Shown here: piece by piece, positions 2,382 through 31,250 of the stretch
Layout: each line of letters starts with the position of its first letter
Numbering within the stretch: position 1 is the stretch's first letter
Sequence record: MZ043897.1
From: Escherichia phage E212
Direction: 5' to 3' (one strand)
DNA length: 38,252 bases
Notes under the pieces: generated by a model
The model's database searches: none
What the model was told of the DNA's origin: nothing
What the model saw: the letters and a program-made list of their open reading frames with translations, nothing else
Translations under genes and position numbers: made by a program

Positions 2382-2654
2382 TCATCTTGCTGTCAGCTGT
2401 TTGGATTTCCTGTAGCCTGCCGCGTAAATGGCTACATTTGGAAGACAAGTTGAGCCTTCATATTTTCTGGTCAACGTTGTCAGTGTTATTACTTCTGCTC
2501 TCATTACTGGTTTGCGTTTGCATTGTAAGACCACTCGTGAAGGGGTTGGCCTGTGTAGCTTGTCAGAGCTGATCGCCTCCTGACTTTGCAGGTTTGCACG
2601 ACGAGCTCTACGGCGAGAAGCTGCGGTGCCTTTAAATTCTGTTTTTCTGGACAT
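2382..2654 (-). CDS. N-like transcription antiterminator (P22 gene 24-like)
   Basis: 90-aa ORF from the internal Met of track ORF 2382..2726; N-terminal arginine-rich motif (GTAASRRRARRA); C-terminal YAAGYRKSKQLTAR resembles P22 gp24; RBS GGGAGG 5 nt upstream. Confidence 0.7.
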   Translation of the reverse strand: MSRKTEFKGTAASRRRARRANLQSQEAISSDKLHRPTPSRVVLQCKRKPVMRAEVITLTTLTRKYEGSTCLPNVAIYAAGYRKSKQLTAR

Positions 2655-2679
2655 AGATTCCTCCCGAATAAACTTTGGC

Positions 2680-2727
2680 GATGCAATCTCGAAGCTCCTC
2701 CTGAGACGGTTGCTTCGGCATTGCATC
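2680..2727 (-). promoter_or_regulatory. Large imperfect inverted repeat in the N leader (candidate RNase III-type processing hairpin)
   Basis: GATGCAATCTCGAAGC ... GCTTCGGCATTGCATC, about 15-bp arms around a 16-nt loop, between the nutL-like site and the N RBS. Confidence 0.4.
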
Positions 2728-2844: not shown

Positions 2845-2873
2845 ATAGTACGATATGTACTTTATTGGGTCAA
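2845..2873 (-). promoter_or_regulatory. pL candidate promoter
   Basis: Minus-strand TTGACC, 17-bp spacer, TACTAT, about 40 nt upstream of the boxA-like element; overlapped by a palindromic operator candidate. Confidence 0.4.
2847..2861. promoter_or_regulatory. oL operator candidate (AGTAC-N5-GTACT)
   Basis: AGTACGATATGTACT inverted repeat overlapping the pL -10 and spacer; related half-sites occur in the cI-cro intergenic region. Confidence 0.4.
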
Positions 2874-3060
2874 TACAATTTGTTCTAAAATGGGGTGATT
2901 TTTTATAACGCTTTGTATTTAATAGTGTTGTTTTTTAGCGTGGGTGTATCGCCTCGGCGATGTAAGGAGAGATCAGAATTGCGTGGTTTAGTGAGTTGTA
3001 TCTATTTATTTTTCAATAAATACATTTGGTTATGTGTCTTTAGGTGGGGGCGTGAGGCAA

Positions 3061-3086
3061 AGAAAACCCGGCTCGGTGGCCGGGTT
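3061..3086 (-). terminator. Intrinsic terminator candidate just downstream of the NYN-domain gene
   Basis: AACCCGGC/GCCGGGTT 8-bp stem with 6-nt loop; on the minus strand it is followed by UUUUCUUU. Confidence 0.45.
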
Positions 3087-3093
3087 GATGGGA

Positions 3094-3951
3094 TTATCGT
3101 TTATTTCTTTGATGTTTCTTTGCAGACTCAGCTTGAGTGTTTCCATACCTGCGTTTACCGCTATTGTTTTTTCCTCTAGGCTTGCCTTTTTTTCGATCTT
3201 CCCACCAGTCAGGTGCCGGGTCTGGCTCAACATGTAAAGCATCGGCAAGTCCTGATATCAAGCTGTATGACTGAACTCCATCAATGTGCTCTGACAGTGA
3301 TGGGGTAACATTCTGTCTTAGTGGATCAAGAATAAAATCAATACCTTTAATTCTGGCGTGTTTGGCGGCAGGCACAAAGTCTGAGTCCCCAGCAACAAGG
3401 ACAATTACATCAACAAGTTTTTCATAAGCTAAAGTCGTGATATCCATCCCTAGCTTGATATCAACTTGTTTTTGTTTGATGTCATAGTAAAAATCATCAT
3501 TTGTCAGTTCATCCCATTTTTTCGTTCCTTTCATCAGAGCATCAAGGGAGAATGTAGTTAGTTGCCATCGCTTATTATCAACAAGATTCCCTAATCTTAA
3601 GGCTGTTTTTCGAGTTTTTCTTAACTCTTCATGCAGCTCCGTTCTCAGAATATATGATTTTTCGAGTTTGAAATTCTTGCGACCAGGCGTCTTATTGCCA
3701 GGCTCAGGAAGTGGAAGGCGTGTTTGAATGTCGAGTGGTGGACAGTCATAGAAGTAAATTCTATAAAGCTCAAGCGGTTCCCTACGTTCTTGTGATTGAC
3801 GTTTTCCATTAAGATGGGAAAGAACCATTGACCATATTACTTTCATTATGCATTGCGCAGTCAGTTCATGCTCGGCGAAGTGTTTACGATGCGTAGCATG
3901 AACACGCTGCATGAAAAAACCCGCATCAATTAAAATTGCTGCTTTCTTCAT
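3094..3951 (-). CDS. NYN/LabA-like (PIN-like) domain protein with basic C-terminal tail; putative nuclease in the rexAB position
   Basis: 285-aa ORF; N-terminal AAILIDAGFF and downstream IVLVAGDSDFVPAAK motifs are typical of NYN/LabA-like domains; Lys/Arg-rich C-terminal 40 aa; immediately downstream of cI on the same strand. Confidence 0.6.
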   Translation of the reverse strand: MKKAAILIDAGFFMQRVHATHRKHFAEHELTAQCIMKVIWSMVLSHLNGKRQSQERREPLELYRIYFYDCPPLDIQTRLPLPEPGNKTPGRKNFKLEKSYILRTELHEELRKTRKTALRLGNLVDNKRWQLTTFSLDALMKGTKKWDELTNDDFYYDIKQKQVDIKLGMDITTLAYEKLVDVIVLVAGDSDFVPAAKHARIKGIDFILDPLRQNVTPSLSEHIDGVQSYSLISGLADALHVEPDPAPDWWEDRKKGKPRGKNNSGKRRYGNTQAESAKKHQRNKR

Positions 3952-3960
3952 AAGAGTCCC

Positions 3961-4022
3961 AAAAAAATAGCCCAGAGCCGTTATGCAGATATTAACAATT
4001 GTCTGCGAACGGGGCTGGGCTT
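3961..4022 (-). terminator. Long structured hairpin with U-tract between cI and the NYN gene (terminator or attenuator candidate)
   Basis: Minus-strand arms AGCCCAGCCCCGUU / AACGGCUCUGGGCU (12 pairs with a 2-nt internal loop) enclosing an inner hairpin GCAGA...UCUGC, followed by AUUUUUUU; sits 60 nt after the cI stop, and its U-tract ends 10 nt before the NYN start codon. Confidence 0.5.
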
Positions 4023-4078
4023 GGTTTAATTAATCTATGCCAAGTTGACTGTGCCGTCAACATAAAACTTACTTCCTA

Positions 4079-4738
4079 TCACCCAAACGTCTCTTCAGGC
4101 CACTGACTAGCGATAACTTTCCCCACAACGGAACAACTCTCATTGCATGGGATCATTGGGTATTGTGGGTTTAGTGGCTGTAGAAACACCTGACCGCTAT
4201 CCCTGATCAGTTTCTTGAAGGTAAACTCATCACCACCAAGTCTGGCTATACAGAAATCGCCTGGCTCAACAGCCTGCTCAGGGTCAACCAGAATTAACAT
4301 CCCGTCAGGAAAGCTGGGCTTGGATCCTGTTGGTGCGGTCATGGAATTACCTTCAACCTCAAGCCAGAATGCAGAGCCACTGGCTTTTTTGGTTGTGCTT
4401 ACCAATCTCTCCGCATCGCCTTTGGTAAAGGTTCTGAGTTCTGGAGAGAACATCCCAGCCTGAACATGAGAAAATACAGGGTACTCATATTGTTTTTTAA
4501 CTGGGGCCGATGAGTATTCGCCAACAGGTGAAAATGTCCCGTCGTGGTTGAATGATATGTTATCAATACCAAGGTATTTAAACACCACACCAATATCACT
4601 AAGAGATGGATGACGAGATCCGCGCAACCAGTGTCCAATCCCACCCTGCGTCATACCTAGCTCTTCGGCTAACTTCTCTTGAGTTATGCCGAGCTCTTTC
4701 ATTCTGGATCTAGCCAGTTCATACCATTTCATTTTCAT
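4079..4738 (-). CDS. cI: CI repressor, hybrid: novel N-terminal HTH domain fused to a lambda-cI-type C-terminal S24 (LexA-like) domain
   Basis: C-terminal about 135 aa ([13 protein letters not shown]...[12 protein letters not shown]) near-identical to lambda cI; N-terminal about 85 aa ([37 protein letters not shown]...) unrelated to lambda cI; start taken at the internal Met with RBS AAGGA. Confidence 0.9.
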
Positions 4739-4773
4739 GTCCTTATTATTACGCTCTGTACTGGAACCATCCA

Positions 4774-4820
4774 TGCACAATGTGTATTTTTGCTTGTATT
4801 TGGAAAGTACATATTGTATT
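4774..4820. promoter_or_regulatory. oR operator candidates in the cI-cro divergent region
   Basis: TGCACAATGTGTATT (4774-4788) and AGTACATATTGTATT (4806-4820) resemble the oL palindrome AGTACGATATGTACT; exact pR/pRM hexamers not resolved. Confidence 0.35.
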
Positions 4821-4848
4821 TTTTATTCGAGGTTACTATGGAGGGCAT

Positions 4849-5064
4849 ATGAGCAACCTACGAAAATATCGAGAGTCACTGAATATCTCTCAAACAACAC
4901 TTGCTAAGGCAGTTGGATGCACACAGGGAGCTATCGGACATTGGGAATCTGGTCGTCGCTTCCCAGACCTTAAAACATGCCGTGCTCTTGTTGCGTGCCT
5001 AAATAAGTTAGGCGCAAAAGTAAGTCTTGATGACGTGTTCCCGCCGGAACACAAAGCCGCTTAA
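4849..5064 (+). CDS. cro: Cro-like HTH repressor
   Basis: 71-aa ORF divergent from cI; HTH segment ISQTTLAKAVGCTQGAIGHWESG shares its type with the cI N-terminus; RBS GGAGGG. Confidence 0.8.
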   Translation: MSNLRKYRESLNISQTTLAKAVGCTQGAIGHWESGRRFPDLKTCRALVACLNKLGAKVSLDDVFPPEHKAA

Positions 5065-5074
5065 TAAGCGGAGC

Positions 5075-5120
5075 CGCTCTTTGTAACAACGGACATTCGT
5101 CCTACGTCGCTGAAAAGCGA
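5075..5120 (+). promoter_or_regulatory. nutR candidate (boxA-like CGCTCTTTG plus two hairpins, the second with a GAAAA-type loop)
   Basis: CGCUCUUUG-UAACAAC-GGACAUUCGUCC-UACG-UCGCUGAAAAGCGA; parallels the nutL candidate element for element. Confidence 0.45.
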
Positions 5121-5205
5121 GTCCCAAGATATCTGACCAACTAAGGCCATATGCGTTTCCACGCATACCTTTCAACTAACTATTCACTATTGGAAATCTT
5201 AAGAA

Positions 5206-5502
5206 ATGGAACGAACAAGTTACAGCAAACTATCACAGCGTGACGTTGATCGCGCAGAAACAGATTTACTCATCAACCTATCAACGCTTACCCAGCGCGG
5301 TCTGGCAAAGATGATTGGCTGTCATGAATCGAAGATAAGCAGAACGGACTGGAGATTTATTGCTTCGGTCTTGTGTGCTTTCGGAATGGCATCAGACATC
5401 AGTCCGATTAGCAGGGCTTTTAAGTATGCGCTTGATGAAATCACAAAGAAAAAATCCCCGGCCGCCACCGAGGATTTTAAGCAAATTGATATGCAATTCT
5501 GA
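5206..5502 (+). CDS. cII: CII-like transcriptional activator
   Basis: 98-aa ORF; C-terminus KKKSPAATEDFKQIDMQF resembles lambda CII KKRPAATERSEQIQMEF; HTH in the middle. Confidence 0.8.
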   Translation: MERTSYSKLSQRDVDRAETDLLINLSTLTQRGLAKMIGCHESKISRTDWRFIASVLCAFGMASDISPISRAFKYALDEITKKKSPAATEDFKQIDMQF

Positions 5503-7492: not shown

Positions 7493-7933
7493 ATGAAAAA
7501 ACTAACCTTTGAAATTCGATCTCCAGCACATCAGCAAAACGCTATTCACGCAGTACAGCAAATCCTTCCAGACCCAACCAAACCAATCGTAGTAACCATT
7601 CAGGAGCGCAACCGCAGCTTAGACCAAAATCGGAAGCTTTGGGCTTGCCTTGGTGACGTTTCGCGTCAGGTTGAATGGCATGGTCGCTGGCTGGATGCAG
7701 AAAGCTGGAAGTGTGTGTTTACCGCAGCATTAAAGCAGCAGGATGTTGTTCCTAACCTTGCCGGGAATGGCTTTGTGGTAATAGGCCAGTCAACCAGCAG
7801 GATGCGTGTAAACGAATTTGCGGAGCTATTAGAGCTTATACAGGCATTCGGTACAGAGCGTGGCGTTAAGTGGTCAGACGAAGCGAGACTGGCTCTGGAG
7901 TGGAAAGCGAGATGGGGAGATCGGGCTGCATGA
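7493..7933 (+). CDS. ninB: NinB (Orf-family recombination protein)
   Basis: Starts MKKLTFEIRSPAHQQNAIHAVQQ..., matching lambda NinB; internal Met of track ORF 7475..7933. Confidence 0.9.
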   Translation: MKKLTFEIRSPAHQQNAIHAVQQILPDPTKPIVVTIQERNRSLDQNRKLWACLGDVSRQVEWHGRWLDAESWKCVFTAALKQQDVVPNLAGNGFVVIGQSTSRMRVNEFAELLELIQAFGTERGVKWSDEARLALEWKARWGDRAA

Positions 7934-8457
7934 CTATCAAATCAAATACGCCAGCACACGACAAGGACTGCTGGCAAACGCCGCTTTGGCTTTTTGATGC
8001 ACTGGATATTGAGTTTGGATTCTGGCTGGATTCGGCAGCGAGCGACAAAAATGCTCTGTGTGCTCACTGGCTAACTGAGGCCGACGACGCGCTCAATTCT
8101 GAGTGGGTAAGCCACGGTGCAATCTGGAATAACCCACCGTACAGCAATATCAGGCCGTGGGTGGAAAAAGCCGCTGAGCAGTGCATACAACAGCGACAGA
8201 CGGTAGTGATGCTTGTGCCAGAGGATATGTCAGTCGGATGGTTCAGCAAGGCTCTGGAGAGTGTCGACGAAGTTCGCATTATCACTGATGGACGGATTAA
8301 TTTTATCGAACCATCGACGGGGCTGGAGAAGAAGGGAAACAGCAAAGGCTCCATGCTGCTGATTTGGCGACCGTTCATCAGTCCTCGACGGATGTTTACT
8401 ACCGTATCCAAAGCGGCATTGATAGCGATCGGGCAGGGCGTCAGGAGGGCGGCATGA
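7930..8457 (+). CDS. Phage DNA N6-adenine methyltransferase (Dam-like)
   Basis: NPPY motif (WNNPPYS) and DKDCWQTP N-terminal motif typical of phage Dam-family methyltransferases; ATGA overlap with the ninB stop. Confidence 0.75.
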
Positions 8458-9034: not shown

Positions 9035-9203
9035 CCCATCCCAAACCCTTCAATACCAGAAAGAAAGCGTCGAGCGAGCTTTAACGTGCGCTAACTGCGG
9101 TCAGAAGCTGCATGTGCTTGAAGTTCATGTGTGTGAGCACTGCTGCGCAGAACTGATGAGCGATCCGAATAGCTCAATGTACGAGGAAGAAGACGATGAA
9201 TGA
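9027..9203 (+). CDS. ninF: NinF
   Basis: [51 protein letters not shown] matches lambda NinF. Confidence 0.8.
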   Translation: MLSPSQTLQYQKESVERALTCANCGQKLHVLEVHVCEHCCAELMSDPNSSMYEEEDDE

Positions 9204-9918
9204 GTTAATAAATGGCAATGCCATCAAAATGACAAGCATTGAAATCGCTGAGTTGGTGGGTAAGCGTCATGACAATGTGAAACGTACCATCGAAACGCTG
9301 GCTAAAAATGGTGTTATCCGGCTTCCTCAAATTGAGGTTTCCGAAAGAATCAATAACTTAGGGTTCAATGTTCAGTACGAGCATTACGTCTTCGAAGGCG
9401 AACAAGGTAAGCGAGATAGTATTGTTGTTGTTGCCCAGTTGTCGCCAGAGTTCACCGCTCGCCTTGTTGACCGCTGGCGAGAGCTTGAAGAAACTGCGGC
9501 TAATATCCCCAAAACGCTACCAGAAGCGTTGCGCCTTGCTGCTGATCTTGCTGAGCAGAAAATGCAACTGGAAAACCAGCTCGCAATTGCCGCACCTAAA
9601 GTTGAGTTTGCCGATCGCGTTGGCGAGGCCAGCGGAATTTTGATTGGAAACTTTGCAAAGGTTGTTGGAATTGGTCAAAACAAACTGTTTGCGTGGATGC
9701 GCGATCACAAAATCCTTATTGCTTCAGGTTCCCGGCGCAATGTGCCAATGCAGGAATATATGGATCGCGGCTATTTCACAGTGAAAGAAACAGCGGTCAA
9801 TACAAATCACGGAATACAGATATCGTTCACCACAAAAATCACCGGGCGTGGCCAACAGTGGCTGACCAGAAAGCTGCTCGATAACGGAATGCTGAAAGTA
9901 ACAGGGGAGGCTGCTTAA
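9196..9918 (+). CDS. Antirepressor-like protein (Rha-type N-terminus, Ant/KilAC-type C-terminus; Roi-like)
   Basis: 240-aa ORF; N-terminal SIEIAELVGKRHDNVKRTIETL resembles the phage Rha/regulatory N-domain; C-terminal half resembles antirepressor domains; nin-region location as for HK022 Roi. Confidence 0.6.
   Translation: MNELINGNAIKMTSIEIAELVGKRHDNVKRTIETLAKNGVIRLPQIEVSERINNLGFNVQYEHYVFEGEQGKRDSIVVVAQLSPEFTARLVDRWRELEETAANIPKTLPEALRLAADLAEQKMQLENQLAIAAPKVEFADRVGEASGILIGNFAKVVGIGQNKLFAWMRDHKILIASGSRRNVPMQEYMDRGYFTVKETAVNTNHGIQISFTTKITGRGQQWLTRKLLDNGMLKVTGEAA

Positions 9919-30208: not shown

Positions 30209-31250
<1,042 letters not shown>

Follow-up and report, generated by a model that had tools for sequence, protein, structure and literature searches.

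The closest described relatives of the immunity region treated here are phages of the VT2-Sakai type, for which the sequence of the module has been available since 1999. Smith et al. 2012 (PMC3430580) named the repressor variant of this type cI2c and its partner cro4. According to these authors lambda CI (CI2a) and cI2c have the carboxy terminus in common while the amino terminus of lambda is unique, which implies different DNA binding, and the cI2c copy of VT2-Sakai contains a premature stop. For a Shiga toxin 1 (Stx1)-converting phage from O157:H7 Morioka, GenBank record AP005153 lists six "putative operators", half of them at pL and the other half in the gap between cI and cro.

We analysed a stretch of 38,252 nucleotides (nt) from Escherichia phage E212 (sequence record MZ043897.1), called the window in the following. 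Its interval 4079-4848 consists of a leftward gene, the repressor gene cI, and a gap of 110 base pairs (bp) before the rightward gene cro, which starts at 4849. With a probability of about 0.9 the region is the primary immunity module of a lambdoid or P22-like temperate phage and belongs to the cI2c/cro4 type; the module comprises cI, PRM/OR1-3/PR and cro as well as OL1-3/pL about 1.96 kb leftward. The mosaic of a non-lambda head and a lambda-like tail within the repressor, which the original prediction had noticed from the letters alone, is a correct observation, yet this immunity type has already been catalogued and described in print.

Assignment to the cI2c/cro4 immunity type

The assignment is based on the following genes and gene parts:

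4079 to 4738, minus strand: cI repressor gene from the list of open reading frames (ORFs), 219 amino acids (aa), HTH_3 head and Peptidase_S24 tail
4490 to 4738, minus strand: cI head and first part of the linker (codons 1-83), 22% aa and 40% nt identity to lambda, recognition helix region at residues 30-40
4072 to 4489, minus strand: lambda-homologous segment (codons 84-219, the stop and about 7 nt beyond), from a global DNA alignment and a codon-by-codon comparison
4849 to 5064, plus strand: cro, 71 aa, Pfam HTH_3 (4.2e-12), all-helical HTH_3-type protein without the lambda Cro fold

When positions 3900-5250 were compared with phage records by megablast, the whole cI-OR-cro-cII region turned out to be about 97-98% identical to many phages, including the Stx2a WGPS/F series. 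At least 80% of this query is covered by 56 phage records, and phage 2B8 covers 100% of it, including the gene downstream of cI. The cI-OR-cro module is likewise about 97-98% identical in the Stx phages VT2-Sakai, Nil2, Stx1 and Stx2-II (Morioka), 1717, 2851 and YYZ-2008 and in the non-Stx phage 2B8. Its non-lambda part (4480-4860) was found in 776 of 5,426 complete E. coli genomes (14%).

The head and Cro are essentially identical to those of the type phages. Cro does not differ at a single position from the Cro proteins of VT2-Sakai and the Stx1 phage, and the identity of the head amounts to 100% with phage 2B8 and with the PA-series O157:H7 Stx2a phages, to 98.8% with VT2-Sakai and to 51-52% with the Salmonella phages epsilon34 and 103203_sal5. 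The six operator sequences are also held in common with the group, five exactly and one with a single-base difference from AP005153.

The same features separate the module from the lambda immunity group. Only 18 of 83 aligned head residues are identical to lambda, and the recognition helix reads QGGIGHWLR instead of QSGVGALFN. The best matches to a lambda operator leave at least 7 of 17 positions mismatched at OR and at least 6 of 17 at OL, and BLASTP against lambda Cro gave no alignment at E <= 100. The original prediction had called Cro and the operators unrelated to lambda, and both statements hold: no similarity to lambda Cro was detected, and no operator comes closer than 6 mismatches in 17. 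The overall layout is that of a lambdoid bistable switch, with cI and cro diverging about 110 bp apart, three dyad sites between them and three more at pL; the order of genes and sites in the window is N, pL/OL, a cargo gene, cI, OR, cro, cII, O and P. From these comparisons the phage should be heteroimmune to lambda and homoimmune to VT2-Sakai-type phages. The postulated new immunity specificity is therefore right insofar as head and operators differ from lambda, and wrong insofar as the type is long known as cI2c/cro4, is annotated in AP005153 and occurs in 14% of the E. coli genomes.

In practical terms the module is relevant because many O157:H7 Stx2a prophages, among them Sakai Sp5 and the PA series, have this immunity type. 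Otherwise it is a textbook-style case of domain-level mosaicism in lambdoid repressors, which adds little beyond existing knowledge.

Start and domains of the repressor

The mechanical cI ORF (4079 to 4780, minus strand) reaches up to a TTG at 4780. This start is disfavoured, since the additional part would overlap operator sites and the annotated starts of homologues give shorter proteins. The ATG at 4738, which gives a protein of 219 aa, is the likely start; the alternative is the ATG at 4732 (217 aa), which lies 7 nt from an AAGGA and corresponds to the start annotated in Nil2.

Pfam assigns residues 11-58 to HTH_3 (1.9e-10) and residues 87-209 to Peptidase_S24 (1.5e-28), and the best PDB sequence match of the protein is the full-length lambda repressor 3bdn (E 2.5e-95). 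The residues for autocleavage are retained in the alignment, namely Ala94-Gly95 (lambda A111-G112), Ser132 (lambda S149) and Lys175 (lambda K192). An HTH_3 head joined to an S24 domain with Ser/Lys dyad and Ala-Gly site is what characterizes autocleaving repressors of the LexA/CI type. As the tail is 98.5% identical to that of lambda, RecA-stimulated self-cleavage and operator binding would be expected for this repressor as well.

In the head, the counterparts of the lambda positive-control residues E34 and D38 in the alignment are E21 and E25. The helix-turn-helix motif TQGGIGHW (residues 30-37) resembles the motif TQGAIGHW of Cro (residues 25-32), and over 62 aa the head shares 35% of its residues with Cro (E 9e-13), in agreement with the likeness of the two motifs claimed before. 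The additional claim that about 85 N-terminal residues are unrelated to lambda needs to be corrected. The head is indeed not that of lambda, but both share the HTH_3 fold at 22% identity (phmmer E 4.5e-4 with 1lli), and the true division of the protein is 83 plus 136 aa.

The same architecture is found in 80 IMG/VR loci which were selected because they encode a window-type head. All 75 full-length cI genes among them code for 219-aa proteins with a lambda-like tail and at most 6 differences from the window; of the remaining frames one is truncated to 119 aa and four continue beyond the end of the contig.

The boundary with lambda cI and the age of the exchange

Residues 84-219 of the tail correspond without a gap to lambda cI 101-236, with 134 of 136 aa and 390 of 411 nt identical. 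The near-identity of the C-terminal part to lambda is thereby established for 136 residues rather than 135. The codon differences comprise 18 synonymous and 2 non-synonymous changes (W129L and D138G in lambda numbering). Homology starts exactly at the TAT codon of Y84 (lambda Y101) in the linker, at the beginning of the conserved YEYP motif. Upstream of this codon the nt identity with lambda drops to 20-37% per ten codons, which is the random level, and stays there up to the start of the gene; in the first ten-codon block 10 of 30 nt are identical. On the other side the homology tapers off about 7-10 nt beyond the stop codon of cI, and a global DNA alignment with the lambda rexA-cro interval confirms that it is confined to about 4072-4489. 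The cI stop is also the downstream edge of the cassette among the cI2c phages themselves, as the alignments of those without the NYN gene found downstream of cI in the window begin at query position 179-182 (window 4078-4081). The junction inside the cI linker was thus correctly anticipated. It lies at lambda residue 100/101, in the inter-domain linker and upstream of the retained Ala111-Gly112 cleavage site.

The very low ratio of non-synonymous to synonymous change in the tail (2 versus 18 codon differences) could also be taken as a sign that purifying selection or convergence, not recombination, made the tails alike. Nearly all changes being synonymous does point to strong selection on the tail domain. 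However, selection at the protein level cannot keep synonymous sites, and the tail has 95% nt identity with 79% of the four-fold degenerate sites identical, compared to 40% nt identity in the head. The change occurs within one codon, and the homology runs for a few bases past the stop into non-coding DNA. Selection or convergence as the sole cause is refuted by these data, and we leave it practically no probability. The near-identity of the tail to lambda is instead attributed, on the alignments, to homologous exchange of a DNA cassette which extends from the start of the YEYP motif to the cI stop.

This exchange is old and did not take place in the present phage. Its sharp edges at codon 84 and at the stop codon, together with a head, a Cro and operators that are not those of lambda, would suit a novel specificity made recently in the present phage by recombination of a foreign head onto a lambda cI tail, as the original prediction supposed. 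Against this, the identical architecture occurs in 56 phage records, in 776 of 5,426 E. coli genomes and in all 75 full-length IMG/VR cI genes; its sequence has been known from VT2-Sakai since 1999, and PMC3430580 describes it. In addition, 13 of 61 four-fold degenerate sites in the tail differ from lambda, which dates the exchange with lambda as old. Novelty and recency are both refuted, and only a few chances in a hundred could be granted to such an origin.

The direction of the exchange is a separate question. To speak of a lambda tail fused to a foreign head presupposes a direction, and Salmonella phage epsilon34 pairs equivalent head and tail families at deeper divergence. Since epsilon34 has both families, the head/tail pairing must be old, and since the trees of heads and tails conflict, recombination is required. 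The simplest single event would be that the lambda lineage acquired a tail of the epsilon34/cI2c family and not the reverse; the window-type pairing would then be ancestral and lambda cI the recombinant that captured the tail cassette. In epsilon34 a head of the window family (47-51% identity) is joined to a tail which is 79-81% identical to both window and lambda, and the part of the linker directly before the junction continues without a break from one phage to the other (PVKKQ|YEYP in the window, PVKPQ|FEYP in epsilon34). The closest relative of the lambda head, in contrast, the P13374/TL-2011c repressor (56-62% identical), has a more distant tail (63-65%). However, the comparison comprises four lineages only, and the heads of lambda and P13374 likewise align continuously up to the junction. 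An attempt to polarize the changes at four-fold sites (window-epsilon34 and lambda-P13374, head versus tail) gave no resolution, as the deep comparisons are 54-80% different and thus near saturation, and repeated exchanges could yield an equal pattern. We therefore regard lambda as the recipient as a tentative proposal with somewhat less than an even chance, whereas an old exchange of the tail cassette as such is the reading maintained here.

Operators and promoters

The operators and promoters of the module are:

2845 to 2873, minus strand: pL, TTGACC, 17-bp spacer and TACTAT, sigma-70-like, 9 of 12 consensus positions in the promoter scan
2846 to 2862, no strand: putative OL1, TAGTACGATATGTACTT, match to AP005153, matrix rank 3, overlaps the pL -10
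2871 to 2887, no strand: putative OL2, CAATACAATTTGTTCTA, match to AP005153, rank 4, overlaps the pL -35
2904 to 2920, no strand: putative OL3, TATAACGCTTTGTATTT, one base off the AP005153 site, rank 6
4745 to 4773, minus strand: proposed PRM, -35 TGGATG (4773-4768), 17-bp spacer, -10 AATAAT (4750-4745), placed by eye and consistent with AP005153
4747 to 4763, no strand: putative OR3, TATTACGCTCTGTACTG, exact match to AP005153, rank 6, overlaps the -10 of the proposed PRM and the start region
4773 to 4789, no strand: putative OR2, ATGCACAATGTGTATTT, match to AP005153, rank 8, abuts the PRM -35, centre about 43 bp upstream of the proposed PRM start
4794 to 4822, plus strand: proposed PR, -35 TTGTAT (4794-4799), 17-bp spacer, -10 TATTTT (4817-4822), placed by eye and consistent with AP005153
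4805 to 4821, no strand: putative OR1, AAGTACATATTGTATTT, match to AP005153, rank 1, spans the spacer and -10 of the proposed PR

The pattern AGTAC-N5-GTAYT, previously proposed for both the pL and the pR side, is present in the 38 kb only at 2847-2861 (pL side, palindromic and therefore found on both strands) and at 4806-4820 (pR side), which makes three strand hits against 0.05 expected. The repeats are thus real, but the exact pattern fits only two of the six operators. All six follow a looser consensus, A(A/G)TAC(A/G)-N3-TGTA(C/T)T, as a 17-bp dyad. Five of them agree exactly with the sites annotated in AP005153, and OL3 is off by one base.

For each operator a symmetric leave-one-out matrix was built from the other five sites and scored over 38,236 window positions. 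All six operators rank between 1 and 8, and with a matrix from all six they form the top six by a wide margin. The looser core TACRNNNYGTA is weakly discriminating (5 hits versus 1.0 expected, two of them outside the operators), and the 17-bp matrix is far better.

Conservation points in the same direction. Among the 80 IMG/VR loci there are 28 distinct variants of the cI-cro intergenic region; as these sequences are related to each other, the sample is supportive and does not amount to a formal test. On average 0.92 variants per column differ from the window in the OR operator columns, compared to 3.50 outside, and the changes inside operator sites are mostly found in the central spacer.

OR1-3 and OL1-2 of the window are identical to the published VT2-SA oligonucleotide sequences (PMC10742460). 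In that study from 2023 the operators of VT2-Sakai were examined by electrophoretic mobility shift assay (EMSA), and lambda CI bound them with an apparent dissociation constant (KD) of 3.7-6.4 uM versus 0.21-0.35 uM at lambda OL1/OR1, that is 10-30 times weaker than its own OL1/OR1 (PMC10742460). Such weak binding fits heteroimmunity.

The spacing of the operators differs from that of lambda. From centre to centre OR1 and OR2 are 32 bp apart and OR2 and OR3 26 bp, while the distances are 25 bp for OL1-OL2 and 33 bp for OL2-OL3; the corresponding values of lambda are 24/23 and 24/20. On the left it is thus O1 and O2 that form the close pair, on the right O2 and O3.

The proposed switch

Lambda biology as worked out by Ptashne and colleagues served as template for the steps proposed here. 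Dimers of the repressor would bind the 17-bp operators OL1/OL2 and OR1/OR2 by means of the non-lambda head and thereby shut off pL and PR, where the pL -35 and -10 overlap OL2 and OL1, respectively. Dimerisation and pairwise cooperativity would be supplied by the lambda-identical tail, as would the long-range contacts that loop out the approximately 1.96 kb between OL and OR. Repressor at OR2 probably activates PRM through E21 and E25, and PRM transcripts would start at about 4738, the A of the ATG, so that the cI mRNA would be leaderless as in lambda. Cro would bind the same operators with the opposite preference; its helix motif differs from that of the repressor at one of eight positions. 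Cleavage at Ala94-Gly95 by Ser132/Lys175, stimulated by RecA, would make the prophage SOS-inducible. The most likely function of the module is a lambda-style bistable switch with non-lambda specificity.

Some observations weigh against this reading. The consensus promoter scan of the window detected pL and neither PR nor PRM, both of which are weak matches, with PR below the threshold. The literature searched contained neither a footprint or EMSA nor an immunity test for the cI2c repressor itself, and the operators are called "putative"; the papers of the Koudelka group concern the repressors of 933W and BAA2326, not cI2c. Because the operator spacing is unlike that of lambda, a lambda-like cooperativity between OR1 and OR2 cannot be assumed. 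Finally, codon 121 (4376-4378) of the window repressor carries a private change from Asp to Gly (lambda D138). In 58 of the 75 full-length IMG/VR copies Asp is found at this position and W129L is the sole tail difference from lambda, and the tail of one copy is 100% identical to lambda.

The private D121G change would also be in keeping with a defective repressor in a decaying remnant, for which VT2-Sakai (AP000363) offers a precedent: there a stop replaces Gln31 inside the recognition-helix motif, turning TQGG into T-stop-GG, which confirms the premature stop reported by Smith et al. 2012. The window copy, however, is intact at this site and in its whole frame, all catalytic and cleavage residues are present, and the P22-like genome in the window is complete, its early and late genes being intact. 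A decayed module is accordingly very unlikely, and we keep to a functional cI2c/cro4 switch.

Within such a switch the cooperative pairing may differ from that of lambda. A lambda tail combined with a different operator spacing and an OL-OR distance that varies between about 0.9 and 2.5 kb makes another pairing possible, for example OR2-OR3, or a stronger self-repression of PRM. Separately, the cI of lambda may be the tail-cassette recombinant. We consider this reading doubtful, at about one chance in five. If true, the altered pairing would keep the repressor level lower and make induction easier in the immunity type that is commonest among O157:H7 Stx2a prophages. The repressor with its lambda tail is a natural domain swap and could be used to separate the contributions of tail and operator layout to cooperativity and induction threshold.

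The cargo slot between cI and OL

The slot which is occupied by rexAB in lambda contains one gene in the window:

3094 to 3951, minus strand: NYN-domain cargo gene, 285 aa, Pfam NYN (6.8e-9), PHROG 5783 (function unknown)

Situated between the cI stop and OL, this gene does not itself belong to the switch. It is bracketed by a promoter-like site (4032-4060, minus strand) and a terminator-like hairpin (3065-3086, minus strand). Its product may be a nuclease-type defence or exclusion protein that is expressed in the lysogen. As PADLOC gave only weak matches (HEC-09 2e-4, NYN 1.4e-3), it was not assigned to a named defence system.

The interval from the cI stop to OL1 (window 2863-4078) is a hot-swap cargo slot in the IMG/VR loci (L008-L087). 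The 75 loci with full-length cI contain at least 15 unrelated ORFs of 94-348 aa at this place or, in six loci, nothing (137 bp). The NYN gene is present in phage 2B8, but only in one of the 75 slots examined. The variable cargo is what sets the OL-OR distance to about 0.9 to 2.5 kb, while the repressor is essentially invariant.

Genome context and neighbouring genes

The window (1-38252) comprises nearly the whole genome of a P22-like podovirus, whose early and late genes are intact and whose closest relatives are EC.P3, CUS-3, Kapi1 and phiv205-1. Its genes include recT, cIII, N, O/P, ren, Q, tailspike and integrase, with PHROG matches among others to RecT, CIII, Ren and Q. The late region matches P22-like podoviruses, with EC.P3 being 100% identical over its part, and also CUS-3, Kapi1 and phiv205-1. 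Neither the genes checked nor the feature names of the phages that matched best included an stx-related product, the window itself having not been searched directly for stx. An Rfam scan of the window at gathering threshold gave no match.

The phage is thus a P22-like podovirus and not an Stx phage, which means that immunity cassettes of the VT2-Sakai type also occur outside the Stx phages. The backgrounds of the cassette are the P22-like podovirus of the window, the Traversvirus Stx phages VT2-Sakai, Nil2 and Stx1 phage, and the non-Stx coliphages 2B8 and ev017, which we take to be lambda-like siphoviruses.

Two genes next to the module complete the early region described here:

2382 to 2726, minus strand: N-type antiterminator gene, first in the pL operon, Pfam N_peptide (2.2e-32)
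5206 to 5502, plus strand: cII-type activator gene, Pfam Phage_CII (6.3e-32)

Cro (4849-5064) matches the solved chain 28tn_A ("lambda repressor-like protein", 82 aa) with E 4.5e-17 and about 50% identity, so a structural template exists for the Cro family of the window.

A homologue of Ant-type anti-repressors (PHROG 63, 1.2e-99) is encoded in the nin region at 9196-9918 (plus strand); it adjoins a DNA methyltransferase gene at 7870-8457. If this anti-repressor acts on the S24 repressor, it would provide a second induction route or cross-talk between prophages. Just upstream of the tailspike gene, on the opposite strand, an ORF of 178 aa (30209-30745, minus strand) shows similarity to ClpP/SppA-like "head maturation proteases". 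It sits outside the head gene cluster and may be another cargo gene.

Comparison with named systems

The phages of the VT2-Sakai type share with the window a head of 98.8-100% identity, a Cro of 100% identity and the cI-OR-cro-cII DNA at about 97-98%. They differ in that the window cI is intact while that of VT2-Sakai has the nonsense codon, and in the D121G change, which is private to the window. Downstream of cI the Stx phages carry the 173-aa orf22/b63, where the window has the NYN-domain gene.

With lambda the window has in common the linker from Y101 onwards and the whole C-terminal domain with cleavage site and Ser/Lys dyad, as well as the gene order N-OL-(cargo)-cI-OR-cro-cII-O-P and tripartite operators. 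The head, in contrast, is only 22% identical and lacks the N-terminal arm of lambda, so that the protein is 18 residues shorter. The fold family of Cro, the operator consensus (AGTACA-N3-TGTACT type in the window) and the operator spacing are also different, and rexAB is absent from the window.

The gp46 protein of Salmonella phage epsilon34 is a full-length homologue of the window repressor, with 47-51% identity in the head and 79% in the tail. Its gp47 is homologous to the window Cro, and the operator core ATAC(A/G)-N3-TGTAT is related. However, epsilon34 is a Salmonella P22-like phage whose recognition helix reads TKGAVSHWLNG and whose operators differ in the outer half-site positions, and because of these differences its specificity is probably distinct from that of the window.

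In the laboratory imm hybrids lambda imm434 and lambda imm21 the DNA-binding head was swapped as a unit with Cro and operators. The repressors of 933W (cI1b) and BP-4795 (cI1a) form a natural pair with the same tail and different heads, in which head, Cro and operators were likewise exchanged as a unit (PMC3430580). The domain for oligomerisation and cleavage is kept in such exchanges. Both this pair and the imm hybrids consist of other sequences, whereas the unit in the window has one edge within the linker of cI and the other at its stop codon.

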